From: Amphiscolops sp. MND2022
Taxonomy: Eukaryota
Direction: 5' to 3'
DNA length: 60,000 nucleotides
Assembly (NCBI GenBank): GCA_964187785.1
Contig: OZ076409.1
Span: 6,822,001-6,882,000, forward strand
The notes under the pieces were generated by a model, which did no database searches, was not told the DNA's origin, and worked only from the letters and a program-made list of their open reading frames with translations. This document shows, in pieces, positions 1,796-32,341 of the stretch. The first letter of the stretch is position 1, and every line of letters starts with the position of its first letter. The translations under genes were made by a program, and so were the position numbers.

Positions 1796-2914
1796 TTGTA
1801 ACATTACATGAGTGCCATGCCCTGTAGAGTATATATCACTCGGACGTTGAGTCCGCATGGCTGAACTTGTTACGACCACATCTAATGACAACCTTTGCAT
1901 CAACCATTCCCTGTTTTGTTGTGACTTGTGTTTTCGCATTTTGTTTAATAACTTGTGAATCTGCTATTAATTTGTTAAGTTGAAAAACCAATTTCATTAG
2001 GAAAGATAAAAATTGTGGTACCGAAAAACATTTTATTCAAATTTTTGGAATTGTTTCCTGAAATACTGCAAAGAATCGCTTGGTTTCATTACAACGACGG
2101 GTTATAAAGAATGTATCTTCCATTGGTATGATCACATCATGAACAACATCAGAACCGCCCTCCGAATATACCAAGTTTAGTCCCTGGAAGCAATGTATGA
2201 TAGCAGAATAAATGAAACCTTGAAGTCTTCATGACTAGTCAGGATATATCAATTGATAACACTCATATTAACAATCAAAACAAACCCTATTGGGGGTTAC
2301 ATGTTTGTTGATCGGGCGAAGGTTTCCTATTATTATCTGTAGGTTTGTTCTGATAATTATAATTAACAACTGAAGTTTATTACAAACTTGTCATCGGTAA
2401 ATACGATTACATTCACGGGTTATGAGGTGTCGTTTATACGATATATAACAACTTGATCAAAAAGTTTCCCGGGTTGCGACTTTGTTCAACAAAAGCTCAT
2501 GCGTTCAATTTTTCTGCAATAAATATGAAATTTTGTTCAAGAAAAGTGCTTGAAAACAACCAAGTTTTATTGAACTATCCAATAAGGTTGAATAAATTAA
2601 TGTAGAGTGGAGAATATCTCAGTGTTCAGCGGTGTCTCGTGTAGCAAACTTGACTTTTGGTGGTTTCAAGTCCCCTAGGACCACAAGATTTGAACCTTTC
2701 AGTTTTAATTTTCTCCCGGGAAAAAAATGTTGCTACTTTCCAATTAAAAATCCGATTTTGGAATCCTTGCTATACTATACATCCTACGAGCTATATTTGA
2801 GAAAACAAGAACGCACACTCAAATCCCATCGCAGTCCCATAGAGCCCCATATAAACAAAGGCATCCACTGGAATACAGAAATTCCGAGGAAAAAGATTTA
2901 TAGAACTCGTCATC

Positions 2915-3370
2915 GGGAGCGGGACAAAACAGCCGATTTTCAAAATAGGACAAAACAGCCGATTTTTGAAATAGGACAAAACAGCTGATTTTAAAACAGT
3001 ACAAAGTCCGAAAGAATAAAATAAATTTTTCAATTTCCCCTAGTCAGCTATGTTCTCATACTCCTAGTGCCCTAAATGCAGGAGCGAAGCGAAGCGGAGC
3101 GACGTGCCATATGGCCATGCCTCAATGTTGCTACTTGGCGAAGGGAGCGAAACGACCGGGCCATACAACAAATATGCTAAGTATTTTTGAAAATCAGCTG
3201 TTTTGTCCCGATTCAAAAATCGGCTGTTTTGTCCCGTTTTGAAAATCGGCTGTTTTGTCCCGTTTTGAGAATCGGCTGTTTTGTCCCGTTTTGAAAATCG
3301 GCTGTTTTGTCCCGTTTTGAGAATCGGCTGTTTTGTCTCGTTTTAAAAACGGCTGTTTTGTCCCGCATCC
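2915..3370. mobile_element. Foldback/Mutator-like MITE with inverted arrays of a 26-bp unit around a ~140-bp core
   Basis: GGACAAAACAGCCGATTTTCAAAA units on the left and their reverse complement on the right. Flanking direct repeat CTCGTCATC (2906-2914 / 3371-3379; 8-9 bp depending on terminus). Confidence 0.8.
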
Positions 3371-3557
3371 CTCGTCATCTTCAAAATTTAGAATTTCTTC
3401 GACTTGAAGCAATGAGATAAGACATTAGCAGCTTCTAAACTTGCGTAGTATAGACTATTGTAGATAGGCTTGAAAAAACTATCGAAATTCCTGGTATTTT
3501 TAGTCGACGCTTCCATAGAAAACGCAGACTATACTGGTGGATTTCGTAAAGACCAGT

Positions 3558-4115
3558 TTAGTCACTGTAAGAGCCACGTCCCGTGGTGTCTCTCAAATCA
3601 CCAACGGACCGCGAGTCCTTTTTCAATAATTTTGTTTTCAAGCCGGATGAAATTTCCCTATTTTCCTGACTGCTAGGGGACATGCTAGCCTCAGTGTCCC
3701 TGTTCCCAGAGGAAGACATTGAACTCACAATATTTTGAATCTCTGGTAGCACCTTTTCTGATATGGCAGTACTGATTGCCCTATTTATTTGACTATGTAC
3801 CATGGCCATCATGGAATCCATTTCTTGAGACAGTCTAAGATTAAATTCATTTGAGAAAGTTTCAAAAGACTGCCTGACATCGTTCTGCCTGTATTCACTA
3901 TTCTCATGGGAGAAGTTTCTATATTCATCCCTTTGGTACAGATTAGCCTCACTGTCACTACGAACTGAAGATTGTTCAATTGCTTCAGTTAATTCTCTCT
4001 CTATGGGATTTTCACTCCCATTACCTAACATTACGTCCAAGTTGTCCATGTCGGACATCATGTCCATTTCTCTAGACTTTCTAGTTTTCGCCTTTTGACG
4101 TCTCGTAGAAGGCAT
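3558..4115 (-). CDS. Copy of the Gag N-terminus carried in the 3' LTR (frame intact, runs off the LTR end)
   Basis: MPSTRRQKAK...RGSY matches the N-terminal Gag encoded in the 5' LTR and stops just beyond the element boundary. Confidence 0.7.
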   Translation of the reverse strand: MPSTRRQKAKTRKSREMDMMSDMDNLDVMLGNGSENPIERELTEAIEQSSVRSDSEANLYQRDEYRNFSHENSEYRQNDVRQSFETFSNEFNLRLSQEMDSMMAMVHSQINRAISTAISEKVLPEIQNIVSSMSSSGNRDTEASMSPSSQENREISSGLKTKLLKKDSRSVGDLRDTTGRGSYSD

Positions 4116-5310
4116 GAGAGATTGTTGCAAGAGGAAAGAATTTAAATTGAAATCTTTAAGCTTGCAAATTAAAATTGTATTCGGTATTATAACAGCGAAC
4201 TTGACTGTGACTATTCGTATGAAGATTATGTCCCCAGGACCACGAGTCCCGGTTATTTATAATCAACTAAACATGACATGCACAAAAGTGGTAGTCATCA
4301 GTCTAATTTTAGCAACAGGTATTCTAAAAATAGACACAACATACAACGTGTCTTTACAAATATATTATCGTAATACTAAAATTAGCAACAGGTATGACGT
4401 AATTGATTCACGTGCTTCTACATATATGAAGTAGTTTCGTTCAAAGATGCACATGTGCCCCTTCAGGCCATTCAATTAAGTTTCAGTAGCAACACTTCAT
4501 GTAAAACAATACATACTAGATCATATGAAATAAATACATGCAAAGATGGTATGTGAACATTGAGCTGTCCTTTATGGCCTTTTAAGATACAAACAGCTCG
4601 TCTTGACTTTCTATCCAGGAAGTTCTGGAAAATAAGAGAATACAAAAGAGGGGGGGAAAAGGACTAATGGTCCTTTTGTAAACAAGGTGACAGATCTCCA
4701 ATCAGAGTAAATATACCGCTTCTGAGATAGTACATTATCAATTTCAATATACGCACTTCTTTTAATCTAGTTTGGACTCAGTGTCCACGCGTCCCTATAT
4801 AGTACAAGAGTAGCGTCGTTGTGGTGGCGAGTGGCCCTTGAGTCCTTTAATTTAGAATACAGCACAAAAGCGAGCAAATGAACAATGCACTGTGATTGGT
4901 TGAGAAATTGGATGGACAGCGCGTCTAGCGAGACAGGAAAGGAAACATTTGAACTCGTTTCCTTTACCTGTACGCCTTGGTGTCCAATTTCTCAGCCGTG
5001 GTATATATCTATCACTGTTATACATGTATTAATACACTATATTCAATTTTCAGCTACATACTTTACATGGTTAATTCCGGATAATTATTCCAAAGCGTTT
5101 CAAATTTCATTAATATAAAAGCCCCGAATAAAATGATATACTTACATAAACATATGCGAAATCAATCACAATAAGATAAGTCTATAGTTTGTCTTCTTAG
5201 ACTTTTGGACTAATAGTCCATTTCTCAGTTCATCGGGAGGGTACCAGGGAGAGTATTGTAGTTGTAGCCGACTGAGTACCAATTGCCATCGCAGGCGGCA
5301 GCCCGCGACA
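3566..5310 (-). repeat. 3' LTR (1745 bp)
   Basis: Direct repeat of 17640-19383 with about 10 differences by eye. Termini TGT...ACA. Confidence 0.97.
4774..4900 (-). promoter_or_regulatory. Putative LTR promoter (CCAAT and TATA); the twin lies at ~18847-18973 in the 5' LTR
   Basis: Minus strand CCAATCA at ~4893-4899 and TATATAG at ~4795-4801, upstream of the gag ATG. Confidence 0.45.
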
Positions 5311-6043
5311 CTCCCCCTGGCATAAGTAGAAAGGCGTTTGCGTTCATGCCATCTAGGAATGCTCTCCTCCTTGCCTGAGTCTCAGCTAAAGTCTCTCCTA
5401 CAGTTACTGTCCTGTCCAGATATTCGTTGACGGTCTCTTCTTGAATTTGTCTGACTGATTTCCCGCATACCACGCAGTCTGAGTAGTTGACTAAGGAGGG
5501 TGGCTCAGCAAGGACCATCTCGTCGAAATGACTTGCCACCGCTTCCATTGACGTGTTCATGGATGATGGTGAATCGTCATGAGGCTCACATGGGTATTGT
5601 AGACCTCTGTCCTGTTCAGGCGGAGACAGCGGGGTGTCCACCTGCGGTACTAGATTTCGGCATATATTTATGGGGTGATTAGATTTGATCCTGTTGTCCC
5701 GACTTACAGGCCCATTTCCCCTTGCCAAGTTGAAGTACTTCTCCCCAAAGGTAGGAAATGGTGGCACATTTGGCCTGGGTGTCACAGGTCTTTTCTGCTT
5801 TTGACCGGCTGAAGTTGAAGGAATTGATATGGGCTCCGCAAGTTGTCTCTCAATGCATTTGGCCATGAGTCTAATCTCGTCTGATTCGTCTTCGGACGAC
5901 AGGTACAAGTCTTCCACAGACCACCCACAATTCGAGTCCATCGCTTCCTCTTCGTCGCTAGAGATGTATATGATTGCCGGTTCCCCTTCTGATCTTGCTG
6001 CTCCGATGAAGTCCATCGGGAAAGTCTCGGAGATGTCTGACAT
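5225..6043 (-). CDS. Accessory ORF (272 aa) overlapping the PPT and 3' LTR; acidic SIM-like N-terminus and a CxxC motif
   Basis: Uninterrupted ATG ORF with IIYISSDEEE and CVVCGKSV...VNEYLD. Codons for PGGVS span the PPT/LTR junction. Confidence 0.7.
   Translation of the reverse strand: MSDISETFPMDFIGAARSEGEPAIIYISSDEEEAMDSNCGWSVEDLYLSSEDESDEIRLMAKCIERQLAEPISIPSTSAGQKQKRPVTPRPNVPPFPTFGEKYFNLARGNGPVSRDNRIKSNHPINICRNLVPQVDTPLSPPEQDRGLQYPCEPHDDSPSSMNTSMEAVASHFDEMVLAEPPSLVNYSDCVVCGKSVRQIQEETVNEYLDRTVTVGETLAETQARRRAFLDGMNANAFLLMPGGVSRAAACDGNWYSVGYNYNTLPGTLPMN
5311..5318 (-). promoter_or_regulatory. Polypurine tract
   Basis: Minus strand AGGGGGAG immediately before the TG of the 3' LTR. Confidence 0.85.
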
Positions 6044-7318
6044 AGCTCGGATTTTGAAGATTTTCTTTGCAATTTTGATTGTTTTCCTGTTGGAATTTAA
6101 ATGTTGTTGAAATCAACTGATTTTCAGCGGAGAAATTGAGATTATGGCGATCTCAGTTTCCTTCGACCACGAGTCTCTTCGTTTCTCCTTTCCCGGGTTT
6201 TCATATTTCCCGGAAAGTAATTCTTCAATAACAGATTCCGCTTCTCTTGTTCTTTCATCATGCCGCCAAGACACTTTGTAATTGCCGACATCAGTTTTAT
6301 TGACTATCATCAGCTAAGCTAATACTTCTAAGTTAGGAGAGTTACCTCAAGTGTTTATTAACACTCATCAGGCACTTGAAAGACTCAAGGAGGTAAAGTT
6401 ATGGCAGTCAGCCACGCCGGCCTTCATCGGTATGATCAACCAATAAGATTGCAGCAAAATTTCTCCCAAGTTAAAATGGCCTTTCAAGGTCGCAAGTCCA
6501 TATAAGGAATAATATAAAATGACCTTGAAAACGGAATAAAATAAAATAAGAAAAAATAAAATAAAATCATGGAATAATTTTGCAAATAACAAAGTTTTCG
6601 AAATTAATGGAAAAAGTAGATATCGCTGGCAGACTTTATCCACATATCTCCATAAATTGTAAATACTTGTAAATTTGACACCAAATTGTATAGCCACGAA
6701 CTCCAATCTTGACATCTTGTCACATCGCCAATTCTTCTTTCAATTCTTTATCATTCAGTTGTACTATTCACTTCTTGTATTATCCAGTATTTAATCACCA
6801 CATTTACTCTACATCGTATTTAATCCATAGTTAGTTTGAGTCTACAAGTCGTTTTTATTTATATATTTCTTTATATCTCCATCCCACTTTCATCTTCGGA
6901 CTCAGCGTCCACACGTCCCTAATCCTACGGATCTGTAAGGAATACTCTGACTAATCGACATCCAGTCCAGCTTGGTGATCTTAGTCAATTTCAACATCCC
7001 CAACTTCCTTCACACATACGGTGCAGCAATTTTTCACCTTCATCGCGACATACTACTTCACAAGCCGATTTGTATCTTTGCGAGGATCTACTGATATACT
7101 GCCAGTACCAAATTCCAAGTAAGTAGTTGCTCTTCTTTTGTTTTGAATAGAGATTAGGCTTGATCAGGGCTTTAATCACTTTCATCGACTTCCTGTCCAC
7201 ATAACACAAGTGTTCACAAGTGTTCAAACAAATCAACTTCCGGAAGATTTTTAAATGCGGTAAAATGGATTTTAATTCAGGAAGGTTCCCGCTTGATTTC
7301 CTCTCTTTTTATTTAGAC

Positions 7319-10300
7319 ATGTCGTCAGAGAACGTTGTTGAAGAAGCTACTACCATACCTCCTGGCACAGAGGGACAAGAACAGTCAGCAAATCCCCTCC
7401 CTACCGTCGTCAGCTCGACACAAGTCATTCCCCAGGAGACTTTAACCCCCAGTCCATCAACAGAAGAGAGCGTCAGTGCATATGTAGAGCGCACATTACA
7501 AGAATTAGGGCCCCAACATGAAGTTTGCTTCAACCCGACCATTGAGGCCGAATCGACAGAGCCAACTCCGGAACAGACTATACCAAAGGCATCTGTCTCG
7601 GATGCAATCGACAAGCTCATTGAAGGGAATGAGGGCCAGCCAGACGTATTAGTGGAGACTGAAACTCATAAAGAAGAAATGAGTGAAGAGGGCCAATTTA
7701 AGCTCAAAGCAGACTACTTCCAAACTGATACTAGCTCGGTAGAGGAGCTCTACGATAGTGCCGGGGCGGATACCACGACTCGTAAGCTCACATTTATAAC
7801 TTCTGGGGTTGCTGATCCAGAGGAGGAGGGACAAGAAGATCTGAATACAGGCCGTCTAGCTGAGACATCCAGTGTTGTTACTCGCGTACGACAATCGAAG
7901 GAAAAGACTGGCCTTACTGTCCCTGGTCGAGCATTGCTTAAGAAGTATTTCAATGAGGCCCCACCGGTTCACTTGCCTGTTGGGCACCGAACCCTGGCTC
8001 TTAGTGAGCCACAAGTCCATGCATTACTCAAGGTTGTCTCAGATGAAGCCGTTTCGTCGTCATTGCACACGATGCATTCACTGGTCAATGAAGCTCTCAA
8101 AGCCGGCAGTAGGATGAACAGGGAATGGGCTGTACCCGGAGGCTCTCGGGGTCCCCGTACAAATTCTGAGAGCTCGGCAGAAGACACATCCCGGGGCGGA
8201 CACACTACAGATGACTATACAAGTGGGGCTTTAAGTTCCGATGACGATTTCATCACCCGGCGACCCACACTTCCCCAAGTGTCGACGGACAATCAGGCTA
8301 CTTCGACTGAGGCAGTTACGTCCAGTGAAATGATCCCTAGTCCGGGGTTTACTGCCTCTGACTACAGGCCGTTATCCCAATTGTGTGCCCCCCAATCACC
8401 CGAGGGTCCCAAAAGACCCGTTCGAAAACGCAGGAAGGTGGCTGGATCTACAGGAAAAGTCATGAAAGAAGCCTATTTCAAAGGCATAAAATGGACCAAA
8501 ACCTTCGTGACCGGCCCCTTGGACCCAGAGCACAATAAACACAAATTTTATTGCCAAATCTGCAAGTCCAATATCTCTATGTTCTCAAAAGGGGCCAGGG
8601 AAATCGTGAGGCACTACCAGTCAGAGTCGCACCTTCGAAAAGACCAGCGCTGGAGGTACGAACACCTACGGCTTGTGGACCCGGTGACTGGCCAAGTGAG
8701 ACACGAAGTCCGGGGCAAAGACGGACGAGTCCTTACGCCAGTTGAGTTGGAGAGGGAAAAACCCCTTTTTGAGAACGCCGTTTTAGTTGACATAGGGGAC
8801 AAGCACCCCTTTTACGACGACTACATTGCCGGAACAACCGCTACGCCCAGCTCTGAAGAAATTAGAATTTGTACTCAGATTTCCCTGGTTGGCCACTTCG
8901 TCCCTCAGTGCGGAGACGTCCTGTTACTCCAGACTTTGTGGAACCAGATTGGCATAGCAGCTAACTACAAGGAACCATTTTCACCTCTCGAGTGGGGCGC
9001 TACCACTTTGACCGTAAGTATTCTTTCCTTTCTGACTTCGTCATCGTCGTAAGGTTTCCAATTGTCGTCGTCTCATTTAGTCCTTTATATTTCAGACTAT
9101 CTTTCACCACATTTTCCTCTGCGGAATGAGCGACAATTGTGTCAATCCGTTTCTGGAAGGCAGACACTTTGTGTACCGTTCGTCTCATGCAGTACCGCCT
9201 CGCCAGCGACCATGCCGCTGGACTGTTGACCGCAATAGCGCGCATCTTCTCATTCTGTACAGTCAGTACAGCCGCAATTGGTCAGTGTGTCTTGCTGTCC
9301 GTCGGAACTCATTCCCATTTTGGAACAGTCGGGCTTGCTAACGAAGAAAGGAATTCAATACCCATTTAGATTTGATACATTTTCTTTGCCCAAGCTCATG
9401 CATCAGAAATGGGGAAGCGTCTTCGGAGGGATCAACTTTTTCTCTCAACTCCGATTCTTAGTCACATTCGTAGATGGCTGTCAGGACGAGATCTGGGCCA
9501 CTCAGTCTCCTGAACTTGGCAAGGTAAATATAATCATATCTGTTTTGGCGGGTGGACTAATGGTCAGATTTCGCTCCCAAGTAGTTCTTTCGTTTAGGCA
9601 ATTTCAACTTGTTCTCTGGAAATCACATCAGTTCCTGCAATATGTTCCGAGCTGCTGGCGGACTGGAGGGCGGTCCATGATTATATGACCAGAGTTGCTC
9701 CGACTCAAAAAAACCAGGGAGTGAGGCATAGACCCCAAAGTTTAGAGTGGAGCATAATTGGTGATGAGTTCTTTCATCTCAAACTCGAATTCTTTGGCCG
9801 AATTGTCCGTGATTGTTAGTTTTTTCTTTTCTTTCATGGACCAATTATGTGTATAAGCATAGTTACTCACATTCAAGCTCACGTAGGGCCATTATTGTCC
9901 GAACGGACTAGGGGTCTACTCATTTATCACCAGTATATTCTCAAAAGGTTCGTTGTTTTGCAGATACCAAGTGCTTCGAGGGCAGTCTCTCTCAGCGGAA
10001 AGACTCTGGCTTCCTTACATACCGCGAGTTACGGCAGTTCGTGCGGAAGCTCTGCTACAGATCCTTGCTTCCGAAACATTTGCCTGATGAGGCCGACTGG
10101 ACTGGGCTACACTCATTACAGGGAGAGTCGCTCACTCAGCTTTCGTCACGGGATTTCCTCAATCGGTTAAAACTTAAAGGAGACCTGGACGCAGCTTGTC
10201 GGGCAAGAGCCAAACGTGAGGCCGACGATCCCCAAAGTGTATACACTGATTCTGAAGCCGCAGTTGAAGCAGTTAAGGAAGAATTTGCCTCCAAGGCTCG

Positions 10301-11117
10301 CAGTTATCTAGTTCGCCTTCTGGAACGTTTCCTTGATGACATCAGCTTCAATTCTGACATCGTTAAGGGTATGAGTTGCTTTGACCCTGTGGTCCTCCTT
10401 TCCGTGAGCTTTGATCAAGCCGCTCTTTGTTTTTCTACCCTCTATTACTCCTTCAGCTTGCGAGGATGGGTGTCCAATACTCCCGAGACTGAGGCCCGGG
10501 ATGAGTACCTTGAGTTCGTGGACTTCTTCCGTACCAAGTACCACGACTTTAAAGATGTTCCAGAAACTTTTACTGACATGATTGGGTTACTGACTCCCAT
10601 GCCTGAGTTGAGGTCCCGCCGGCACTTGTTCCATTTATTCCAGTTGAGTTGTCTTTGCTTGACTTCCCAGATTCCCAAACTGCCAGCTATCAAGTTCCAG
10701 GGCGTAAATAGCAGTGATCCTCGCTGTCGATTGTCCAGTGTCTTACTTCCTGCTCAGTCCTATTTAGCAAACGTGGTTGGGTCAGTAGCTGTATGTACAA
10801 CTGAGGCTTATTTGGAGAAATATCGCAAGCTTAAGTCCAGATTCATCAATGGGAATGTTGCAGGCGACCCCTGGGTCCACATTGACAGTTTTGGCAAGGC
10901 CAATTTCCTTAAGACTCTTATTTCCGGTCAGAAGGCTTTGAAAGATAAACCTCGCTCTGCTAGTCGGTCACCTTCGTCTTCGGTATCCAGTACTGGATGT
11001 CAGCGGCGTAATCGCAGTCCAATCAAAGATAAGAAAGGAGTGAAGTTTGGGGCTGTCTCCTTTTCTAAAGCACCCACTGCCAATGATACTCTGTTGCCCG
11101 GGAGTTCTAAAGACTAA
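7319..11117 (+). CDS. Antisense spliced gene, hAT-transposase-derived zinc-finger protein (exons 7319-9013, 9096-9523, 9598-9814, 9964-11117; exon 2 frameshifted in this copy)
   Basis: GT-AG introns with matching phases (0, 0, 1). BED-like finger CQIC...RHYQSESH, NLS KRPVRKRRK, and hAT-like segments LLADWRAVHDYM, LKLEFFGRIV and SDIVKGMSCFDP. Confidence 0.7.
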
Positions 11118-11331
11118 ATGTACATAGAGTACATTTGTTTCATATTCTGTCAACTTGTATTTATCATATTATCTCGTTTGTTGAAATTTCTTGAGTTTAT
11201 TTGTAGTATTTCTTGATGTCTAGTCTTCTTGATTTTTGTTTTCATTTGTATCAGTTGGGAAGTCCAGTGAAAAAATAGTAAGAAAATCAAGTAGTCTAAA
11301 AGGCTATCTGGACGTTAATTTACATATCTAG

Positions 11332-14300
11332 TTAATATCTGTATTCGTCAGTGAAGTTGGGGGTTGGGTTAGGTCGAAGATTGTATTTCCCTCCTCTAGG
11401 GCTAGAGTTTTCTTCATTTTTTCCATTTTCCGATATTCCGGGCACGGTAATATCTGCGCCCCTTTTTGGAACGTTTCCGTCATCATTTAATTCATTAGTG
11501 ACGTCATTTTCATTTTCCGTCCCAGTAGTCGATTCATGTGGAGGGGACGGCGCGTCACGGCTGCTAGCCGGTCTCGGCCTTATTTCATTCTCGTTGACGT
11601 CATTTGCATTTTCCGTCCCAGTAGTCGATTCATGTGGAGGGGACGACGCGTCACGGCTGCTAGCCAGTCTCGGCCTTATTTCATTCTCGTTGACGTCATT
11701 TTCATTCATTGTCTCGCTGCTGTCATTCTCGGTGACGTAATAGTCGACTTCACCATTCGTGGCGTCCTGCGGCAGACGCGTGGCCGTGTCTGGCCAATCA
11801 TTTTTCTTCGGCTCGAACAGCTCGTATTCAAAGTCTGCTTCCCATGAAATGGTATACAAATCGTCTTGCGGTATTATTATTTCTTCATCAGGCTGTAATT
11901 TTTCTTCTTTGTATTTGTCTTCTAATGGAGTATTAGGGACAAATTTTTTGAGCCTTATCCGGTGCAAGATTTGCGTTTTATTCGTATTTAAACGACGCAC
12001 TATATAATTGTTATTTGGTAGAGTTTTTTGAACGACAAAAGGACCAATCCATCGGAAGTCCCTGAATGGTATTTTAGATCCTTGACTATCTGCTTTCGGT
12101 TGGAGAACAAAACAGTAGTCTTTCTCCTGTAGCGGAGCCGCCTTGGCCTTGCGGTCGTAGTACTCCTTGTACTTTAAAAACGACTGCATAATATTCTTTT
12201 TAGTTTGATAAATGAGGATTTGCGTCCTCTGCTGCAATTCTTCCGCGAATTCAGTCGTTGGTAGGAAATTTTTGTTAGGATTATTCCCAAATTTGTGATC
12301 CAGGACGTTATAGGGAATTCGGCCATGAAAGACTTTGCTAGGCTCACAACCAATACTAGCATGGTAAGTGGTGTTATAGTTAAGCACAGCTAATGGTAAA
12401 AATTTGTGCCATTGACGACGGTATTCCCCTGAGGCCATCTTTAGGTTGGTTTTTAAAGAGGCGTGTGTCCTTTCGAGTTTACCAATAGTTTGCGGATGTT
12501 TAGTAGTGGCACACTTCAATGTGATCCCCAGTATTGCAGTAATTTCTTCTAAAATTTTTGATGTAAATGCGGATCCCTTGTCCGTGATGAGTGTTGTTGG
12601 CAAATACGAATGTTTCGTCATGATGTCAATTATCACCTTGGCTACGTTTGCGGCTGTTGCCTCAATTAGTGGGTAGGCGAATAAATATCTTGAAAATACA
12701 TCTATTGCCGTCATCACCGTTTGGTATCCGCCGCTAGTTGGTAAATTTGGCAGTAAATCGATTTGCATGGCATCTTCTGGGCCTAGGTCCCATTCAGGTA
12801 AATTCAGTAATTCTGGGGTGATTACCGTGTTGGGGACCCTTTTGTCCTTGGCACATGTTTCGCAGCCTTCTACCCATTTTTTGACGTGTTTTGCAATTCC
12901 GGGGTAGTAGTATTTTTGGCGAATTTCCTGTAGCATCTTAGAAATGCCCGGGTGTCTATGTGCCGTGCCATGTATTGCTTGTAATAATTCTTTGAGCAAA
13001 TGCTTTGGCAATAAGATTTGATGATATTTGACCTGTCCGGTTTCATCGTAGTTTTGCCGCGTCACTATCTCGTCTTTGAGGACTATTCGATCTATGTTGT
13101 TCAAGTAATACTTGTATCGAATATCCTGTTGAAGGATTTCTTCAGAGTATTCTTCTTTTTGAAGTTTCGCCCTTAATTGGAGGAGAATCGGGTCTCTGGA
13201 TTGTTCAAGCAGTATCTGAATTGTTCTTCTTAATTTCTGCGTGAAATTAGTAATCTCTTCGACGGTATTTTCTGATATAGCGTCAATTTGGATTACTGTC
13301 TCAGGGACTATGAGGCTCTTTTTGGAATGTTGTTTCCGTTTCCAAATCTGTTCTTCTGTTTCGTTGTCCTCCTCAGTGAAGAAAATTTGCTCTTCCTCTG
13401 ACACGCCGGCTGATTGGACATTGACCTCGATCGGTCTAGTTTCTACGTCCTCTCGTATTTTCAGGACCAACTTTTCAGTAGGGTCCATTTCCATACGGGA
13501 CAAGTAGTCTGCCGCTGTATTGTTTTTGCCTGGAATGTGAGCTATAATGAAGTTGAATTGAATGACAAAATCACAAGCATTCCAGAGAGGCGGTGGAATT
13601 ATCTTTGTCTGGAAGAACCTTGTGACCGATTTGTTATCTGTAAGGATAATCACGGGTTGAGGTGTTCCCCAGAAAATTTGTCCAAACTCCTTGAATGCAT
13701 AATATATAGCTAGGAATTCCTTTGCATATATCGACATTTTGAGTTGAGAAGGCGTGAAAGTTTTGGATCCATATGCAATCGGCGCATAGGACTTTTTAAC
13801 AGAAGTGTATTTCTGATTTGGGTCGTCTTCGGTCAATATGGCGTAACCGGCTGCTGTAAAACTTGCGTCAGTCATGAGGACCAGTTGTTTGTTCGGCAGA
13901 GGTTGTTTCAACGCCAATTGACTACATCGGTCTAAATCGCGGTTGATCGCATTAAATTGTTCAACTAGCTCTTGCGTGACTAGTACTTTTTCATCCTTTT
14001 TGAGCAATTGGAAGAAGGGAACTAGTTTTTCGGATAGCCTTGGAATATAATTCCTGTAGTAATTGAGGAAACCAAGATAGCGTTGTAAGGCCTTCTTGGA
14101 CTTTGGGAATTTCGTCTTTTCCAATAAATTGACGATTCTTTCTTTTTGGGGCTTTACGCCTTCAGGTGTAATGGTTCTCCCAAGAAAGTCAATTTCAGTA
14201 GCGCCGAAATGGCACTTGTGCATGGACAATTTCAATCCTGCTTCTCTGATACATTGGAACGTTGCTCTTAAGTTGACGATAAGCTGGTCAGCGTCTGTCG

Positions 14301-16503
14301 CCGCGACACCGATATCGTCCACATATTGAGCACATTGGTCTGCTTTTATAACACGATCCAGGTATTCCCTCATGAAACTGGAGAAGGCCGACAGGGCTCT
14401 ACTGAGTCCTTGGGCCAATCTTCTATATGCAAATGTCCTGCTGGCGAAGTTGAAAGCTAGCATTTCAATCGATTTCTGGTCTGCCATAGGAAGGCAATGA
14501 TAAGCTTGGGAACAGTCGAGTTTGCAAAAGAGCTTTTTGCCTGCCATATGTTGCGCCGCATCCGTCAAGGTGCTGACTGGGTGGTTGTTATTGACGTAGT
14601 CATCTGAAATCAGATTATTGATTTTCCGTAAATCCAACAACAGTCTCAGTTTTCCATTGGGTTTTTTCTGCGCAAATATTGGACTGGCGTACTTCGAGAA
14701 TGGTAATGTTGTTATAATCCCATATTTATGGAGTAATGCCAGTTCGACCAATATGTCCTCTTTGAGGTTGACCGGAGTAGGTAGGCTCTGACTGTAGGCA
14801 GGCGACTCGTCCTTTGGGGTCAGTTTGACCGTAAATTCCTCATTGACGCCAATATCAAATCTGTGGCGTGCAAAGATGTCATGGAATTCCACTAATAGAG
14901 TTTCTATTTGTCTGATTTCATGTTGTTGTAACATTGAGTCCTTCCAATCAAAATTGCTGAGGAATTTTCGACGAGATTCCGCATCGTCGTGCGGGTTGAG
15001 TTGTTCTAAACTTTGCAGGTTTCGTAATTCTTTGAGAATTCTTTGTTGTATTGGGGTATGGGTCGTTTCGTCCCCTGGGTTTTCAGGCGTCGGGAACCAA
15101 TATTGTTCGTATTGGTCATTATTTCTGTTAGCTTTAAGAAGGCTACTAATATAATAAATAGCGTCGTCTTCATTTTCATTCAGTAAGTGCCAGGTGGACA
15201 CTGGGTCTATTGGCCTGACGTGTTTCATCTGTTCAGGGGTCATCACTGAAAAGTTTGCAATGTGCATCCCTTTCTTTATTTTATAGGGTTGATCAGTGAA
15301 ATTGTTGACGTGTATTCTCGTAGCCCCTTCATGTAGTGTGACTATGGCGGCACAGAAGGTTATGTCGCCTTCCTCGTGCAGAAGATCGCTGGGTTGCAAT
15401 ATGCCCGTAACTGCATTTTCTGCGTAAATTTGTGATTGAATGGGTATGACCACATGGTCATTGGGCGGAATTGTGACATCCTCAGGATTGAGGATGGGTT
15501 CCAAAACATTTGAGTATTTATGGTCAGCCGTCTTGAGTTGCATCGAGAAGTAGGGAAAGTTGAGTATACCTTGGCGCATGTCCAGGACAGTGTGGTTCCT
15601 TTGAAGGAATATTAGTCCAATTATGGGGCTTGACAGTTTTTCCATTACAATGAAAATTTCGTGAAATTCTATGTCGCCCACTTCGAATTTTAGTTCGACT
15701 GTGCTCTTTGGAGTTTCTAAGTCTCCATTTGCGACCATTATTTGGAAGGATGGGGCAGGACCTTCTTTTACAATGGATTGGGGGGCCAACAGGCGTATTT
15801 TCCTGAGGTCTGCCTCCGGGATTGCACTGGAGTGGGCTCCAGTGTCTATCAGGCCATCTAGAGTTAATTCCCCAAAGTCCATTGGGAAATAGAGCATTCG
15901 TCGTTTGAATTAAAGTCCAAGGTTTGTTGAAAGGGGAACGTATGGTAATTCTCCTTCCTTGGTCACTAGGAGGTGTAATAAGGCTGTCTCATCTAAAAGA
16001 CTATTAGGAGCCTTGTGGTCCTCCTGTGTGTGTATGGCGTCTACTTCTTGTATAGTTGCCTCAAAGTTCGGCTGCCAAAGATCAATGAGGGCCCGAGACA
16101 GTGTGTTGTCTTCGATGTCTGGGTCGTCCTCGTCGTCAGTTGGAGGGTAATATTCGTTTCGAAATTGTAAATTTATTTTGTCATATAGTTTGTCGTCCCA
16201 GTACGGGTCTTTGCCATACTCGGGGTCATAGTATTGAGGGTTATAATCTTCGACAGTTTGTAAGGGTCTAAATTGAGTTTCGGAGTCGTTGTAATTGCTA
16301 TTCCGTCGATATAGGTATGGGTGATCACTGTGAATGATATATTGAGTTTCTTTGCGGGCGTCGGCCATCTGCTGCTGCCAGACAGTCGATGGCATCCCTG
16401 TGGTGTCGTTTTGAGTTTGTTTATATGTAATGTTTGCAGGGTCAGATATGACATACTGTCGTACTGACATCTTGTTACATATTTGGAGTCGTGGCGAAAT
16501 TAG
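11332..16503 (-). CDS. pol: Pol polyprotein (protease, RT, RNase H, integrase) with an in-frame nonsense codon at 15910-15912
   Basis: LIDTGA protease, QYVDD RT, TDAS/TDNK RNase H, H-H-C-C plus D,D,E integrase (IDLL, TDKG, LER), GPF motif. ORFs 15910-16470 and 11332-15897 share one frame. Confidence 0.96.
11499..11708 (-). repeat. 96-bp in-frame tandem duplication in the integrase C-terminal tail
   Basis: TGACGTCATT recurs at 11499, 11595 and 11691. The peptide NDVNENEIRPR.ASSRDA.SPPHESTTGTEN occurs twice. Confidence 0.9.
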
Positions 16504-18188
16504 TTTTTTGAGTCCGTTTTACGTGAGTTTGATTGGCTTGAAGATGCAGTTTCAGGGTTAGTTGACTTTTTGGACGATTTTTCATCGCCAGAGGTGTCAT
16601 CAGCCTTATCCTCAGGACGTGTCCTTTTGGGTCGTAAATGTGCTCCAGCCCCTTTCCAGCATCTTTCAACAGGGTGATTTTTCTTTCCGCAAGTAGGGCA
16701 TTCTGGGTATGTAGGACGTTGGGGCTTTTTGCCATTTTTGTCCTCCAGTTCTTTCTTCTTCTTCAATTTAGGGCAGCTCTTATAGAAGTGGCCTGTGGCT
16801 TTACAATAAGAGCATTGTGCGTCCTTTTTAGTATTTATGCCATTAGAGAGCAAATTGTTGTTACTGGAGGACGCAGAGGCCATTGTAGCGATTGGCAAAT
16901 CGTCTTGACTCTTCTAATGCGTTGAGTTCAAGCTCTCTTTCAAGATGAGCGACGATTTCTTCATATGTCCCGTTCTCCAGGCGGGCCATATTGACAGATC
17001 GTTTCAATTTTGGAGGCAGTTTTGCGTATAATAAGCTGTCGATCATGCTTTTTGCATTTTCGCCGAAAGCTTTTTCTGCCCCCTGGTTCAGTTCTTCCAA
17101 GAAATCCGGCAATTTCATGGTATTCGGATCGAAAGTCAGCCGATGCCATTTGTGTTTTGCCGTTGCTTGGGATTCCGGTTTGACGTATTTTCTCCGGAAT
17201 ATGATTAGCACATCCTCGAGTGTTTGGCGGTTAATTGAGTTTATGTTCCTGAAGGTCTGCAGGGCCCCTTTTCTGAGCAATGAGTGAAAATGGTTTATTT
17301 TCATTTGCTCTGTCATGGCCGGTTGCATTTTGATCATTGTGTGGAACAAATCTTCAAAGAGTTCGAATTTCTCACTCTTTCCGTCAAACGTCATAGGTGT
17401 CGTTTGGACAGGTCGGATAGTCATCGTTTGGGGTTTATTTTGCAAATTGACTAGTACATCAGCCAATCTATTGAGCGGGTCCTGAGGCGGCTCTTTGACC
17501 TCTGGTTCTGGTGCTGGCAGAGTGGTGTCCAGAGAGACATTGTGGTTAGATTGCTGTCTCTCTAGGTTCGGGATTGAGTGGATTCGTCCAGTGAGAAATT
17601 CAGGTATAGGCTGTTGGGCTTCGTTAGCTCCTGTCACCATGTAAGAGCCACGTCCCGTGGTGTCTCTCAAATCACCAACGGACCGCGAGTCCTTTTTCAA
17701 TAATTTTGTTTTCAAGCCGGATGAAATTTTATATTTTCCTGACTGCTAGGGGACATGCTAGCCTCAGTGTCCCTGTTCCCAGAGGAAGACATTGAACTCA
17801 CAATATTTTGAATCTCTGGTAGCACCTTTTCTGATATGGCAGTACTGATTGCCCTATTTATTTGACTATGTACCATGGCCATCATGGAATCCATTTCTTG
17901 AGTTAGTCTAAGATTAAATTCATTTGAGAAAGTTTCAAAAGACTGCCTGACATCGTTCTGCCTGTATTCACTATTCTCGTGGGAGAAGTTTCTATATTCA
18001 TCCCTTTGGTACAGATTAGCCTCACTGTCACTACGAACTGAAGATTGTTCAATTGCTTCAGTTAATTCTCTCTCTATGGGATTTTCACTCCCATTACCTA
18101 ACATTACGTCCAAGTTGTCCATGTCGGACATCATGTCCATTTCTCTAGACTTTCTAGTTTTCGCCTTTTGACGTCTCGTAGAAGGCAT
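16500..18188 (-). CDS. gag: Gag, broken by two 1-nt frameshifts (~17731 and ~16906)
   Basis: Three overlapping ORFs join into one protein with a capsid-like region (FDGKSEKFELFEDLF) and two CCHC knuckles, CSYCKATGHFYKSC and CPTCGKKNHPVERC. Confidence 0.9.
16503..16509 (-). promoter_or_regulatory. -1 ribosomal frameshift slippery site A AAA AAC (gag-pol)
   Basis: Minus strand TCA AAA AAC TAA ends gag. The -1 frame continues open into MSVRQYV... of pol. Confidence 0.8.
17628..17639 (-). promoter_or_regulatory. Primer-binding site TGGTGACAGGAG (tRNA-Leu-like, tentative)
   Basis: TGG directly after the CA of the 5' LTR. Complementary to a tRNA 3' end CTCCTGTCACCA. Confidence 0.8.
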
Positions 18189-19383
18189 GAGAGATTGTTG
18201 CAAGAGGAAAGAATTTAAATTGAAATCTTTAAGCTTGCAAATTAAAATTGTATTCGGTATTATAACAGCGAACTTGACTGTGACTATTCGTATGAAGATT
18301 ATGTCCCCAGGACCACGAGTCCCGGTTATTTATAATCAACTAAACATGACATGCACAAAAGTGGTAGTCATCAGTCTAATTTTAGCAACAGGTATTCTAA
18401 AAATAGACACAACTTACAACGTGTCTTTACAAATATATTATCGTAATACTAAAAATAGCAACAGGTATGACGTAATTGATTCACGTGCTTCTACATATAT
18501 GCAGTAGTTTCGTTCAAAGATGCACATGTGCCCCTTCAGGCCATTCAATTAAGTTTCAGTAGCAACACTTCATGTAAAACAATACATACTAGATCATATG
18601 AAATAAATACATGCAAAGATGGTATGTGAACATTGAGCTGTCCTTTATGGCCTTTTAAGATACAAACAGCTCGTCTTGACTTTCTATCCAGGAAGTTCTG
18701 GAAAATAAGAGAATACAAAAGAGGGGGGGAAAAGGACTAATGGTCCTTTTGTAAACAAGGTGACAGATCTCCAATCAGAGTAAATATACCGCTTCTGAGA
18801 TAGTACATTATCAATTTCAATATACGCACTTCTTTTATTCTAGTTTGGACTCAGTGTCCACGCGTCCCTATATAGTACAAGAGTAGCGTCGTTGTGGTGG
18901 CGAGTGGCCCTTGAGTCCTTTAATTTAGAATACAGCACAAAAGCGAGCAAATGAACAATGCACTGTGATTGGTTGAGAAATTGGATGGACAGCGCGTCTA
19001 GCGAGACAGGAAAGGAAACATTTGAACTCGTTTCCTTTACCTGTACGCCTTGGTGTCCAATTTCTCAGCCGTGGTATATATCTATCACTGTTATACATGT
19101 ATTAATACACTATATTCAATTTTCAGCTACATACTTTACATGGTTAATTCCGGATAATTATTCCAAAGCGTTTCAAATTTCATTAAAATAAAAGCCCCGA
19201 ATAAAATGATATACTTACATAAACATATGCGAAATCAATCACAATAAGATAAGTCTATAGTTTGTCTTCTTAGACTTTTGGACTAATAGTCCATTTCTCA
19301 GTTCATCGGGAGGGTACCAGGGAGAGTATTGTAGTTGTAGCCGACTGAGTACCAATTGCCATCGCAGGCGGCAGCCCGCGACA
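17640..19383 (-). repeat. 5' LTR (1744 bp)
   Basis: Direct repeat of 3566-5310, followed on the minus strand by the PBS. Confidence 0.97.
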
Positions 19384-19739
19384 GTCACACATTTTTACAA
19401 ACACTTCAATATCTACAAACTTTTACAGGAATGAATCTACAAACTCTTATAGGCAAGAATGAGTGTCACTTGACCAAGATGAGTGTATTGCTGGGAATTA
19501 CATGCACGTGGGTTCGAATCCTGCGCTGGACCAGAACTTTCTAAGCTGCAATAGTAGATGGGAGACCAAAGGGTCCCCTTCACTTTGGAAATTAATATCG
19601 GCTTGGAAGAATCATTTTGCATGCGTAAAATGCCTCCTTATGTGTTTTTTAACATTGAGACTTTGTTCCGAACGGACATTCAAAAAAAAACATTTTGCTC
19701 TTTTTGAACCCTGAGCGGCTTGGATACCGATCTGTTTGA

Positions 19740-24332: not shown

Positions 24333-27300
24333 TGTAACGACCGGCTAGCGACGCACATCTAGGAAGAGGGACAATGCCTAGGGTGCTTAAACAGGAGACC
24401 GTTGTCTTACTACATCCCTAGGCACTAGTTTTTGTTCCCAACATGGTCTCCAAGGGGGACTTTTCTTGCGTCTAAGGAGGCTCCTCTAGTTAGAGCTCCG
24501 AGGCAACGCGCCGACACTCTCAAAGTCCGGACACGCCCCACAAGCCTGTAAAAATGAATCCTAGGTTCCTAACACATACATTCCTGCCACCTCCTACATA
24601 CTTCCGAGGTCCAAAAAGGTGTCTAACTGAAATACATTATATTTGGGTAATAAGGACTAAAATGGAGACCTAGTAGGTCAAACATCATCCAAATACTCTG
24701 TAAACGGTGACAAAACACGAGGATAAGCCCCTATAACATTACAGTTTAGGATTGGTCATCAGTTTGGCCTCTGGCATCATTCCTCATCTTCGGGGCAAAG
24801 TGGTCTCATTTGGCATTTTTCTGCCTAAACACTGTCTTTTTGCTGTCAGATGGCACAATTCCTGATTCTCTCGCCTTCTGGGTGATGACATGTCTGATAT
24901 TCACGTTACTGGGTGGGGTGGGGGTGCTTTTTTCCTATTTTGCTTCCTCTACGGTTTTCGTACCTGTCAGGTCTGCCATCTTGAATGTGCTTGTTTGATA
25001 CCGCCCATTTCGAATTTTTGATCGAAATTTTCAAAAACTTCTGCAACGTCCCTTGCCTGACGTTACATCCTCCCCGGGCCGTTCACATCCCCCGACAGAG
25101 GAAGTTCACATCTTGGTTGCCACCATCCAGTGATCCAGTGATACTGTTGCAACATGGTACGTCAGGAATCTAAATGGAAGTCTATGCCCAAAAACACGTT
25201 ACTGCACAAAAACATGAATTTTTGCCAGCCTAGCGGGCTTCATTGGATTCCACACCCACTGACTCCTAGCAATGGAATACTATTAGCAACTTTAGACACT
25301 TAGCATTGTATTCAAAACGTTTTCAAACTTTTTTTCGCACCAATATGACTAGCACTTTGTGTTACCGCATCTGTATTAGTATAAAAAGCACTTATCAGAA
25401 CATATTTGGCATTGGCCGGGGGCCCACGTGATAGATTAGGTTTTACAAAGTGCACGATAGCACTTAAAAGCGAAAAACAAAAGTAACAGCTGTGGTCTTG
25501 CAAAAGGTTCGTAGTTCATGGTCAACAGAAACTGCAAAATAAATAGCACCAATGGGCAAAACAGAGCTCAAAAATTCAAAATATCATCAAAAGTGAGGAT
25601 CCATTCTGTCTATTGTGTTAGCAGTGTATGTTCAGATAAGGTATCGTCTAGGTAGTACAAGCACCAGTGTATATGCAAGAGATGGAAATAAACTGCTTCT
25701 CAAAAGGATGACAATGTCAATAGTGATAACAGAGCAAATCCAATAAAGGTCGAAAATCAGGCATTATAGATCATGAAAACAGTCTTTGGCGTTAAAAACA
25801 AGTTCCAGAGCAGTCATTCTAGTTCTAAAAGAACGGCCGTTGGCCAAGCAGTTCTCAGAGCTTCGAAGCTCCAGGTGTTTCATCATGCTTGGTGTTGATT
25901 TCTCTCGGGAGAGTACGTGTACTCCCCGGGCCAATGTCTTGTCCGTTGCTTTCACATCGACATGGTTCACACAACTGTGGTGTCGAGAACCGAGGTACAC
26001 CTCACGCATGAATCGAGCAACGAACACTGATTTTTTGAGAAACCTGCTTGGCTACAGATATTAGATTGTCTGAAAAGTCAGTTTGTCACTCATGATGCCC
26101 TGTCTCTGGAGAGCACCAGTAATGACGTAAAAGTGATCAGGGACTGGGAATAGGCCTTGGGGTTAGTAGGAGGGAGGACACTGAGTTTGAAGTAATTTTT
26201 TGCCTTTATGACTGTAGTACGATCAGAAAAAGCGTTCTTTTTCAACTATGGTGTTCACTACTGTACTTGTCGTTCTGTTTTGAGACGCACTGCGTTCAAA
26301 GTCTGAACCTACAAAAAAGCCTATAAACAAGCTCCAGCACCCACAGGGTACACAGGGCACCAAGCAAGCGTGTTCACAACGGATAACTTACACTTAGGTG
26401 ACTTTGATAGCAGTCAGGAGGCGAGTTTCGATTTTTGGTTTTTCACCTCTATGTGTCGTAGACCGTTTTCTCTGAGACCCGAGATCTTAGGGTCGGTTTA
26501 GCACTAATCAAAGTGATTCAGCAGGACCTGGTGAGCGTGCCTAGTTTGCTATCGAGGTCGTTTGGGCCCTCACTGGCACGTACATTGACAAAAAGTGTGC
26601 GATTTGTCTCACAAAATTGCAAAATCAACAATTTGTTCGTCAACAGGCACCTCCAGGGAAAGTCAAATTCAGTTCTAGCGCTGCTAGCGACCTGAAAAGT
26701 TCACACCGTTTATTATACCAGCTAAATAGTTTGGAATTAACCTCCGATTGCCCCAAAACTGACTCTGTGAGTGTTGCGGTCACCTCACAATGTTCACTGA
26801 AAAATTGACTAAGTCGTGAAATTCACAAAAATTGGTCAAACTCGCCTTCTAGGCGTCCTAACTACCTGCAATTTTGTATGCGAGCGTAGATTATGCCCTC
26901 GTAGAAAAAACTACGGCGGCGAGCTGCTTGGAGAATTACCTGGTGATTCGGTTCGACAAAACCTTGATGTACCTGAGGTACCATTTGTTCGGGTCAAATT
27001 TCACAAAAATGTCAATTTCTCAGCTTTGGCTAGCCACTGGCTGCTCAAATTGGACAAATCGCCGGAAAACTTAGGTGCTGGGATACCTTGGAGATATCGC
27101 GCTAGGCTCAACTAAATTTCCGTTTTTTTTGCAACTTTGTGCACTTTTTGAGCAAAACTGTGGCCAAGATTTTTCCACGAGTATCAACAGTAGCGTCACC
27201 AAAATTACGCTACTAGCGCAATTTTTTACGCTCTATACGATGGTGCAAGCCGATTTTGGCTCTTCTTGTTAGGAGAGATTTCCACTCATCGAAAAAACGT

Positions 27301-29364
27301 GGTTGCCGAATTCCCAAAATGTCGCGAAAATAGCACGTTTTTGACTATTTCTCGGCAACCACTGCTTAGAATCACTCACGGTTTTCTGCGTTAGCAATCT
27401 TACACTTTATTATAACAAAAATTAGGCAAGCGAAACCTGGTAGATTCCAAACAGGGTCTCTTAAAAAATTTTCAGATTGCACTTTTACACTATCGGAACA
27501 GTACTGAAAATACGTATTTTCGCCAAGAACTTGCTGTTTCTTTGTTCTCAGGCGTTTCCATTGGTTCTATCAGCAACGTAGGAAGGTGTGACACTTTTAT
27601 TTAGGGGACTGGGTGATTTCAAAATTTAGTTCAGTTTCAATAACACTCAGGCTTATGGGGGTCCTCCACTCAGGTCTATTTGTAACAAAAGAGAAGCACC
27701 GATAAAGTCTCAATTTATATGGGGGATCGCTAGAAACCGTCTTGGTAGTAGTGTTTCGTACTATTACGCTCTACAATAAAACTTTTGGGCCCCTCGAAAA
27801 GCTTGCGGACTGATGCCCAAGGCTTCGCCCTGGCCAAATTTGGTCGAAACGGCCAAATTTGACGATTTTTAAACAAAAATTGCTAAGTTTTTCGCGTTTT
27901 TCAGAATCTTAGTCCAACAAAAGAATTTGTCCCCGACCTATTAGGTCTGTTGGAACGTTTTTCTAATATACCTACTGGCCGTACTCAATTCTACAAATTT
28001 TTGACTGTCAAAATTGGACAAATTGAGATTTGAGCCATGAATGGTGTTATTTTCGAGGTTTTCGCGCTCAAATTTTTCAACAACTGGTTTGAACCACCTT
28101 TGGGTATTTTTTCTAGTTAGTTTATGTGGGGTTGGGCCTGGGAATACGCTTTTTGGGCTGTTAAATACAAAGGGAAACGAAATAACCCAGCTAACGTCGT
28201 AGATTCGGCAGTTGGAAGGGACGCAGAGGCTATGAAGTGAAAGACCTTACGTCTTGCGCTCAGCTAGCTGGGGCCTTCACAGGTTGTCCTCGCAGTCCCT
28301 GTACCTTGCCAATTAGCTGAAAAGAAGCTGAAAACCCGTTAAAACACGTTCCGGATAGGCCGGAATAGTTCTTTCAGCAAGTACGGTTAAGGCAAAAGGG
28401 GTACACCGTCTGAAACTGTATATTTCGAGCTTTTGACCGCCTAAACATGCATGAAACGCAGGAAAATTACAAATACGAAGCCCAAATGGCCTGGCAAAGG
28501 CAATGAAAACAGTCTAGGACCCTCCAGAAAGCTTCTCCTAGATGCGGACCTAACAGGGCCGAAAAGCAGGAGTTGCTCCTAGTCTGATGCGGAAATGAAA
28601 AATCTCCCCATGTGGTCGCCATAAAAACTATTCCAGATGTAACGAGCTGCTAGAGACGCACATCTAGGAAGAGGGACAATGCCTATGGTGCTTAAACAGG
28701 AGACCGTTGTCTTACTACATTCCTAGGCACTAGTTTTTGTTCCCAAAATGGTCTCCAAGGGGGACTTTTCTTGCGTCTAAGGAGGCTCCTCTAGTTAGAG
28801 CTCCGAGGCAACGCGCCGACACTCTCAAAGTCCGGACACGCCCCACATGCCTGTAAAAATGAATCCTAGGTTCATAACACATACATTCCTGCCACCTTCT
28901 ACATACTTCCGAGGTCCAAAAAGGTGTCTAACTGAAATACATTATATTTGGGTAATAAGGACTAAAATGGAGACCTAGTAGGTCAAACATCATCCAAATA
29001 CTCTGTAAACGATGACAAAACACGAGGATAAGCCCCTATAACATTACAGTTTAGGATTGGTCATCAGTTTGGCCTCTGGCATCATTCCTCATCTTCGGGG
29101 CAAAGTGGTCTCATTTGGCATTTTTCTGCCTAAACACTGTCTTTTTGCTGTCAGATGGCCAATTCCTGATTCTCTCGCCTTCTGGGTTATGACATGTCTG
29201 ATATTCACGTTACTGGGTGGTGTGCTTTTTTCCAATTTTGCTTCCTCTACGATTTTCGTACCTGTCAGGTCGGCCATCTTGAATGTGCTTGTTTGATACC
29301 GCCCATTTCGAATTTTTGATCGAAATTTTCAAAAACTTCTGCAACGTCCCTTTTTGACGTTACA
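24333..29364 (-). mobile_element. Non-autonomous LTR element (LARD-like); LTRs at 24333-25067 and 28638-29364
   Basis: Two ~730-bp direct repeats with TGTAACG...CGTTACA ends. PPT GGGGAGGA (minus strand, 25068-25075). Possible PBS TGGCGACCACA (28611-28621). No recognisable gag/pol. Flanks ctc/ctc. Confidence 0.85.
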
Positions 29365-31774: not shown

Positions 31775-32341
31775 TGAGAGAAAACTCAGCGAATGTTTTA
31801 ATGTCGTCATTTTTTTCAATTTTTATCTTTGATAAAGTCAACGCCATGCTGCCTTTCCATGGACCCTGTGATGGAACATGAAACGGAATTGGTGAAACAG
31901 TCTATGCTAATTGCTGCCCCAGTTGAATCTACTCGGAAGTTTTTCGTTCTGTTTTCACGCATTATTTTTAAGACAAAATATGGGAATTTTGTTAGCATGC
32001 TTGCAAAACCTTCGTAAGATGCATTCTTCCACTATTTCAACAAAAATTGAAAATATTTCCACTTCTTCACGGACTCGATCACTGTTTTCACAATTCATTT
32101 TCTTAACTATTCAACTTATGTAATAACCGTTATTCAAATTGAACGTTGAAGATTAAAATAGTTTGCTAGAAGATCTCAGAAGCTCAATAGAGCTAAAGAA
32201 ATGTATTGATTTCATATTTGCACGCCTACTCTCAGAACTTTTTACATGTCTTTGTAGGTTACCAAGCTAATTTTCCATGATTTTATAAAACTGTCAAAGA
32301 AACGTCCATGCATTGAAACTTCACGGATTTGATTTAAACTC

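Follow-up and report, generated by a model that had tools for sequence, protein, structure and literature searches.

The locus described here raises the question of whether an open reading frame that runs through the polypurine tract (PPT) of a retrotransposon and ends inside its 3′ LTR is a true gene, and, if it is, what its product does for the element. The window (the whole stretch of DNA analysed, 60,000 nucleotides) carries on its minus strand a Ty3/Gypsy retrotransposon of 15.8 kb (3566..19383), whose order is 5′ LTR, gag, pol, an extra stretch of about 6 kb and 3′ LTR. The 5′ LTR (17640..19383, minus strand) and the 3′ LTR (3566..5310, minus strand) both have TG...CA termini, as read from the sequence of their ends, and are 99.2% identical to each other; a 5-bp target duplication, GTCAC, flanks the element at 3561-3565 and 19384-19388. 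The pol frame (11332..15909, minus strand) encodes, by Pfam, protease, dUTPase-like, RT, RNase H and integrase domains in the Gypsy order. The dUTPase-like domain lies between protease and RT (pol residues 142-224; Pfam E of 1.5e-4, at the cut-off), and the integrase tail carries a 96-bp tandem duplication at 11499-11690. Elsewhere in the window are a MITE-like element with 26-bp tandem repeats and long inverted arms in two places (2913-3371 and 32340-32790), a second pair of 735-bp direct repeats (24333-29364; 96.6% identity) related to 323-781, a 3.9-kb tandem duplication (35423-43172; 96.4%), and broken LINE-like reverse-transcriptase frames, judged from translation (51058-52974, plus strand).

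The frame in question, designated ORF X, is located at 5225..6043 on the minus strand, in the sense orientation relative to pol, and encodes 272 amino acids from its first ATG without any stop, as originally predicted. Since the TG of the LTR starts inside codon V245, 27 full codons plus the stop codon lie within the 3′ LTR, in good agreement with the first estimate of about 28. The PPT (AGGGGGAG, 5318-5311, minus strand), with near-frozen synonymous sites, indeed falls within codons P242-G243-G244-V245, as expected from the claim that it encodes PGG, but the conservation of PGG tells nothing about the X protein because codons 242-246 are under DNA-level constraint (pS only 0.08). PGG was thus rejected as a protein motif, being confounded by the PPT; one remote lineage (P0269/P0270) has PAV at this place, encoded by CCCGC(A/T)G, and still reads into the LTR. 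The view that X is not env also held: the maximum 19-residue Kyte-Doolittle mean is 0.86, giving no transmembrane helix, and no Pfam env match was obtained, by which Env and an env-like ORF3 are ruled out. Both LTR junctions of the element are protein-coding, as had been noted, with X at the 3′ LTR and gag at the 5′ LTR. The gag ATG (18188) is inside the 5′ LTR, a copy of this start being carried by the 3′ LTR, and the gag frame spans the 5′ LTR/PBS junction, although in the window copy it is broken near 17712-17745; about 183 gag codons are within the LTR (18188-17640).

The X frame is not a peculiarity of this copy. A search of its own genome gave 142 scored matches from 7149 candidates, with 59-100% identity, and 119 of these have no internal stop by hand count. 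Five queries from the X family gave at least 142, 141, 137, 147 and 148 scored matches, respectively, these counts being lower bounds on lists that may overlap, and starting from relatives only about 30% identical, further large lineages were reached within this genome. Altogether, hundreds of genomic relatives keep both frame and position down to about 30% identity, and the members of remote lineages at the loci examined cross the same LTR junction. A profile search identified 459 cluster representatives at E<=0.001. Among the relatives, P0167 (none at E<=1e-60) and P0226 (none at E<=1e-40) are without a close match in the genome of the window, and the best match of P0094 therein is 45%; the X family therefore likely occurs in other species too. 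As to names, all 87 and 111 homologue matches are ENA-sourced only and nameless, and ten X clusters that were looked up carry none; Pfam gave no match for the window X at E<=1 (best for any member, E of 0.11), and the ESM Atlas gave no usable match. No RNA carrying X was among the records listed. No description of the family was found in the literature covered, which lay for the most part outside subscription papers, Repbase-type records and supplements.

Selection on X was estimated by pairwise Nei-Gojobori analysis of 49 of the 50 copies fetched, one having been dropped for a stop. For the 21 diverged copies the dN/dS was 0.135 and for the 29 young ones 0.13, the ratios being rough for distant pairs, where dS is near saturation. 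By region, the ratio was 0.115 for residues 1-55, 0.05-0.06 for three cores (residues 56-70, 101-143 and 186-241), 0.20-0.25 for the linkers, and 0.16 for residues 247-272, inside the LTR, where LPGT.P is kept while synonymous sites are near saturation. The conservation of X across family copies, proposed as a check of the original prediction, is thus confirmed: X is a real, non-env accessory gene under purifying selection, fixed at the PPT/3′ LTR junction. It fits what characterizes the additional 3′ ORFs of Ty3/Gypsy elements, a location between pol and the 3′ LTR with presence and selection in most copies.

The coding constraint of X reaches 10 codons beyond the ATG on its upstream side and sets in at an ATT (6073), a feature hitherto unnoticed. 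In the window the in-frame extension IAKKIFKIRA (6044..6073, minus strand) precedes the ATG, and its likely AUU start (6073-6071) lies in a conserved C-AAA-ATT-G context, which we take to be Kozak-like. The in-frame motif I-A-K/R-K/R followed by two hydrophobic residues, often continuing as x-x-R-Y/F, is present in every major lineage and was found above the ATG in 70 of the 79 open frames from 88 loci, the I-A-K/R-K/R anchor being absent from the other nine, and also in all three further loci that were picked independently. Among 27 lineages of under 88% identity, pN was 0.68 at codons -8 to -2 and 0.15 at codons +1 to +5 (pS 0.82), in which the low pN at codons 0 to +3, like the G at position +4 of the context, is built in by the choice of the anchor by pattern. 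The candidate start codon is ATT in 22, ATC in three and ATA in two of these lineages, while codons are used more evenly at three conserved Ile columns in the body of X. It is preceded by C at -4 in 23/27 and by A at -3 in 27/27 lineages; codon -1 (AAR) shows conservation too, and may reflect either the context or a Lys.

An in-frame ATG upstream of the candidate start was detected in only one of the 27 lineages, and in five lineages neither ATG nor AG is present between the nearest upstream stop and the candidate start, so that an N-terminus supplied by splicing is excluded in these five. An origin of the extension from splicing is accordingly not supported, candidate AG being found in all three phases. 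The overlapping plus-strand ORF (5829-6110) is likewise not supported as the cause of the conservation, for the least-interrupted antisense frame has stops in 21/27 lineages and Arg is kept through AGA/CGA changes. What marks a non-AUG-initiated gene, namely constraint that starts from a near-cognate codon, a strong context, and no upstream AUG or acceptor, was thus found for X. From these patterns, X probably initiates at the AUU (6073) to give a protein of 282 aa, with leaky scanning to the AUG located 6-13 codons below in nearly all lineages. The AUU-started protein would begin with a basic amphipathic N-terminus, an extension of 6-13 codons, followed by acidic sequence. Upstream of the start, a candidate internal core promoter (6115..6149, minus strand) includes CGCCAT (6149-6144) and TCAGTT (6120-6115), which we take to be YY1-like and Initiator-like, respectively. 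Since similar motifs recur about 30-80 bases upstream of the start in many lineages, they suggest that an internal promoter drives X.

X is arranged head-to-head, 1.2 kb apart, with an antisense partner gene that was absent from the original prediction. This intron-split gene (7265..11117, plus strand) has a zinc finger and hAT-transposase-like exons, the hAT link being a lead only (score 0.89), and Pfam and PDB profiles left the hAT identity unconfirmed; its exon 2 is broken near 9130 in the window copy. The antisense exons were found at 36 of the 40 X loci examined (17/20, 13/14 and 6/6), and, in the reverse test, X was present at 19 of the 20 loci picked by an antisense exon, all of one clade. 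For comparison of the three segments we used the 27 rows, from the 40 loci plus the window, that have X, integrase and antisense segments together. The deep clades of X, of integrase (by a quick tree) and of the antisense gene agree with one another. X goes with the integrase clades; the antisense gene has been swapped between near-identical backbones, as indicated by seven discordant pairs among the 27 rows, the window element included. X and the antisense gene are thus paired at most loci, yet with these seven swaps they travel together without strict partner fidelity, and the swapping argues against a tight interface between the two products. The window element is itself a mosaic, for its X and integrase are 94% and 97% identical to locus L031 while its antisense gene is 48% identical to L031 and 98% to L044. 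Its antisense start is common to 9/29 near-identical X copies, indicating that the recombinant itself has spread. Between X and the antisense gene lies a hydrophobic ORF of 115 codons in the sense orientation (6368-6715, minus strand) with no Pfam match, and similar frames occur in L031, L032, L036, L040 and L050.

The LTRs carry repeated copies of the palindrome GGAC-N5-GTCC, which are candidate sites for a dimeric DNA-binding protein. Six are located in the 3′ LTR (3606, 4053, 4237, 4661, 4774 and 5207) and the same six in the 5′ LTR, while only one is present between X and the antisense gene (6898) and one in the rest of the window. The two half-sites occur only with the 5-base spacer, and the sites at 4774 and 6898 have a 22-base context in common. 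Among 39 loci, the palindrome was detected in the counted LTR zone of 23 and in the intergenic zone of 13; it is rare in two remote lineages.

The N-terminal half of X is acidic and disordered, with interspersed hydrophobic residues and a short amphipathic helix at residues 54-69. The two motifs of the original prediction are both present, IIYISSDEEE at residues 24-33 (5945..5974, minus strand) and CVVCGKSV...VNEYLD at residues 190-210. The former is a SUMO-interacting motif (SIM)-like segment with CK2-type serines, located in a region predicted to be disordered (pLDDT 41-45 over residues 1-50), and its pN is 0.105 with pS of 0.82. Its retention in the family was borne out, the strict pattern (three of four V/I/L plus at least five D/E/S on one side) being found in 29 of the 32 frames that are open among 34 loci, where 200 shuffles of each frame gave an expectation of 0.55, an enrichment that overstates independence because the 29 matches share ancestry and shuffling breaks natural acidic runs. 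The P0269/P0270 lineage reads VIYISS(S)DEE at this place. In another lineage (L059-L063) the first SIM core is lost, and four of the five members have instead the acidic-then-hydrophobic DDDIQV[L/I], which aligns with a weakly modelled helix of the window X and, judged from the model, may or may not be a replacement SIM. A SUMO gene is present in the host, and the predicted complex of X residues 12-58 with SUMO from a related record, run without an alignment, scored 0.02, a value that speaks neither for nor against binding.

The C-terminal motif gave a different outcome. In UBZ4 fingers, CxxC is followed after about 11-12 residues by HxxxC, giving C2HC ligands. The assignment of X to UBZ4 could not be upheld, for the His position is Tyr in 81/89 and Phe in 4/89 sequences, the fourth Cys is missing, and X reads NEYLD in place of N-x-HLD. 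The spacing after CxxC in X is 14 residues. UBZ4 was also rejected by pattern, none of the 134 CxxCG-bearing proteins (among 228) matching CxxC-x(9-15)-H-x(2-4)-[CH]. The profile search and structure prediction proposed for residues ~185-235 gave a confident hairpin, with no Pfam match at E<=1 and no significant structural match. The first model of the whole protein was poor (pLDDT 49); AlphaFold2 with 89 sequences predicted CxxCGK (190-195) followed by a two-helix hairpin (197-235; together 5339..5476, minus strand) at pLDDT 88-97, with confidence limited to residues ~190-230 and the remainder poor. The best E of a PDB profile search was 1.1, Foldseek against the PDB and viral libraries gave no match at E<=0.001, and the best VIA-align Z was 5.7 over 45 residues, to generic hairpins. 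C190 and C193 are invariant in one alignment by selection, and C190 is kept at 90% in an unselected alignment. Upstream of the hairpin, HPxxxC (123-128) and DTPLSPP (136-142) (5618..5677, minus strand) supply a conserved Cys and proline-directed S/T-P sites (C128 in 65/72, S140 in 74/84 and P141 in 78/84), and T/S-P-x-S-P-P (137-142) is among the best-kept elements of X; other conserved candidate ligands are H172 (75/88) and C251 (71/79).

Starting from the observed frame and fixed position of X, the selection on its protein, the retention of the SIM pattern and the antisense pairing, we propose tentatively, at slightly less than even confidence, that X is an accessory protein acting in the nucleus, where it would bind SUMO under phospho-regulation and either counter silencing or activate the element. 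Transcription of X would start at the internal promoter that separates X from the antisense gene and end in the 3′ LTR. Translation would begin at the AUU in its strong context and also, through leaky scanning, at the AUG located 10 codons further down, yielding two isoforms, of which only the longer has the short basic amphipathic segment for targeting. With its acidic, disordered N-terminal half X would bind SUMO through the CK2-type phospho-SIM, while CxxC and the helical hairpin, perhaps with C128, H172 or C251, could make up a small interaction module stabilised by zinc. DNA specificity would come from the antisense hAT-like protein, for instance at the LTR palindromes, and the link to the SUMO-dependent chromatin machinery from X. 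In Drosophila, piRNA-guided transposon silencing needs SUMO and a SUMO ligase (10.1101/533091), and CK2 phosphorylation is reported to raise the SIM-SUMO affinity of PML (PMC4276917). Against the SUMO-binding proposal, the SIM is a short pattern that many acidic disordered proteins carry, and no X homologue of known function was found. The fullest form of the proposal is a two-gene anti-silencing module driven by a bidirectional internal promoter, in which a disarmed hAT transposase would bind the LTR palindromes and a SUMO-binding adaptor, started at AUU and fused into the LTR, would intercept the SUMO-dependent formation of heterochromatin; it is rather unlikely to hold in every part.

The same acidic N-terminal half could belong to a plain trans-activator of the LTR or the internal promoter, comparable to foamy-virus Tas and HTLV Tax, in which the apparent SIM would be the hydrophobic-acidic patch of an activation domain contacting the general transcription machinery. 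Such a role, which we hold to be possible though doubtful, would suit the disorder, the amphipathic helix at 54-69, the zinc-knuckle-like core, and the 3′-terminal place of X head-to-head with a predicted DNA-binding gene. The exact order of a hydrophobic core followed by SSD/E is, however, kept down to about 30% identity, and activation domains usually need a looser order of motifs than this. Trans-activation and SUMO binding are compatible and can both hold. That X is a mere by-product of cis-acting DNA constraint at the PPT/LTR, with no functional protein, draws on the near absence of synonymous change at codons 242-253; at other places amino acids, LPGT.P in the LTR among them, are retained with synonymous sites close to saturation, and the frame persists across lineages about 30% identical, so that dN/dS already largely refutes this explanation and makes it extremely unlikely.

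The conserved N-terminal extension bears on two other explanations. X might act, as Nef does, as a cytoplasmic or membrane-associated adaptor, its linear motifs rerouting host proteins and its AUU-started N-terminus targeting a membrane, an organelle or the particle. Motif-rich disorder is a property of Nef, and it is shared by X; the basic amphipathic character of the extension agrees with targeting, and non-AUG extensions generate targeting signals in yeast (PMC6582344). We nevertheless consider an adaptor of this kind improbable, as X has no Gly-2 for myristoylation, its extension is only 6-13 codons with acidic sequence next, and no sequence or fold link to Nef was detected in the PDB sequence and structure comparisons, in which only the hairpin was well modelled. 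The extension also includes AKKLF, ARKLF or ARRLFG, which resemble the RxL motif of cyclin docking, and X with its S/T-P sites as CDK targets might be a cell-cycle factor that times retrotransposition in dividing stem or germ cells. ARKLF, ARRLFG and SRKLF occur in the P0269/P0270 lineage, and few columns of X are conserved better than T/S137-P138 and S140-P141, but the required Leu is Ile in 11/22 and Leu in only 8/22 lineages, and we regard cyclin docking as quite improbable.

Should the fullest form of the proposal hold, an animal retrotransposon would encode its own protein suppressor of silencing, the isoforms of which are determined by non-AUG initiation. Explicit transposon-encoded counter-defence is very rare: a review lists three cases, and plants are the source of those shown (PMC6719617). 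In an animal Gypsy clade, a protein that is selected, present in high copy and has a retained phospho-SIM pattern should offer a direct and cheap way to find out whether SUMO-dependent silencing is attacked by animal retrotransposons. The AUU start, which is deeply conserved, would provide a clean natural example of an LTR element with non-AUG initiation, of a type that AUG-based annotation misses, and the overlap of X coding sequence with the LTR indicates that a Nef-like genome layout arose outside the retroviruses.

From Ty3/Gypsy elements, extra ORFs located after pol and before the 3′ LTR have been described, including the sense aORF-3S and the antisense ORFs of Grande, RIRE2 and Retand TRP28; they resemble X as conserved coding sequence at this place in most copies, with a regulatory role proposed (PMC7264820, PMC11963269, PMC6431247). 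X belongs to this known kind, but differs by its animal host, by sense and antisense genes arranged head-to-head, by reading through the PPT into the LTR, by its likely AUU start, and by having neither a transmembrane helix nor a Pfam match. The nef gene of HIV/SIV is likewise a sense accessory ORF over the PPT and U3, and its product has a largely disordered N-terminus with short motifs. The analogy drawn originally is, as then stated, purely positional, X overlapping the PPT and U3 at codons 242-272. Only 27 codons of X are in the LTR and an internal promoter is likely, unlike in nef, and X starts with MSD (AUG form) or xAKK (AUU form), without the myristoylation Gly; Nef was absent from the PDB sequence, Foldseek and VIA-align rows listed, X being well modelled at the hairpin only.

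At the motif level, in the SIMs of PML, Daxx and PIAS1 a hydrophobic core comes first, and after it stand serines and acidic residues that make a CK2 context. The likeness of X to these phospho-SIMs (PMC4276917) is limited to the motif. For the proposed function the nearest parallel is with VANC21 and VANC6, the anti-silencing proteins of Arabidopsis VANDAL DNA transposons (PMC6719617). As described there, VANC is, like X, an accessory protein of an element with many copies of a short motif (for X, six GGAC-N5-GTCC per LTR), and a family-specific relief of silencing is proposed for both; the effect has been shown for VANC, from plant DNA transposons, whereas the role of X is putative and maybe split over two genes, and no homology between them was detected. 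For the mode of initiation, ORF I of rice tungro bacilliform virus, also a reverse-transcribing element, is known to start at AUU with leaky scanning to AUG (PMC5902531); in that virus, according to this source, a ribosome shunt comes first and the ORFs that AUU and AUG open are separate, while in X they would give two isoforms of one protein.
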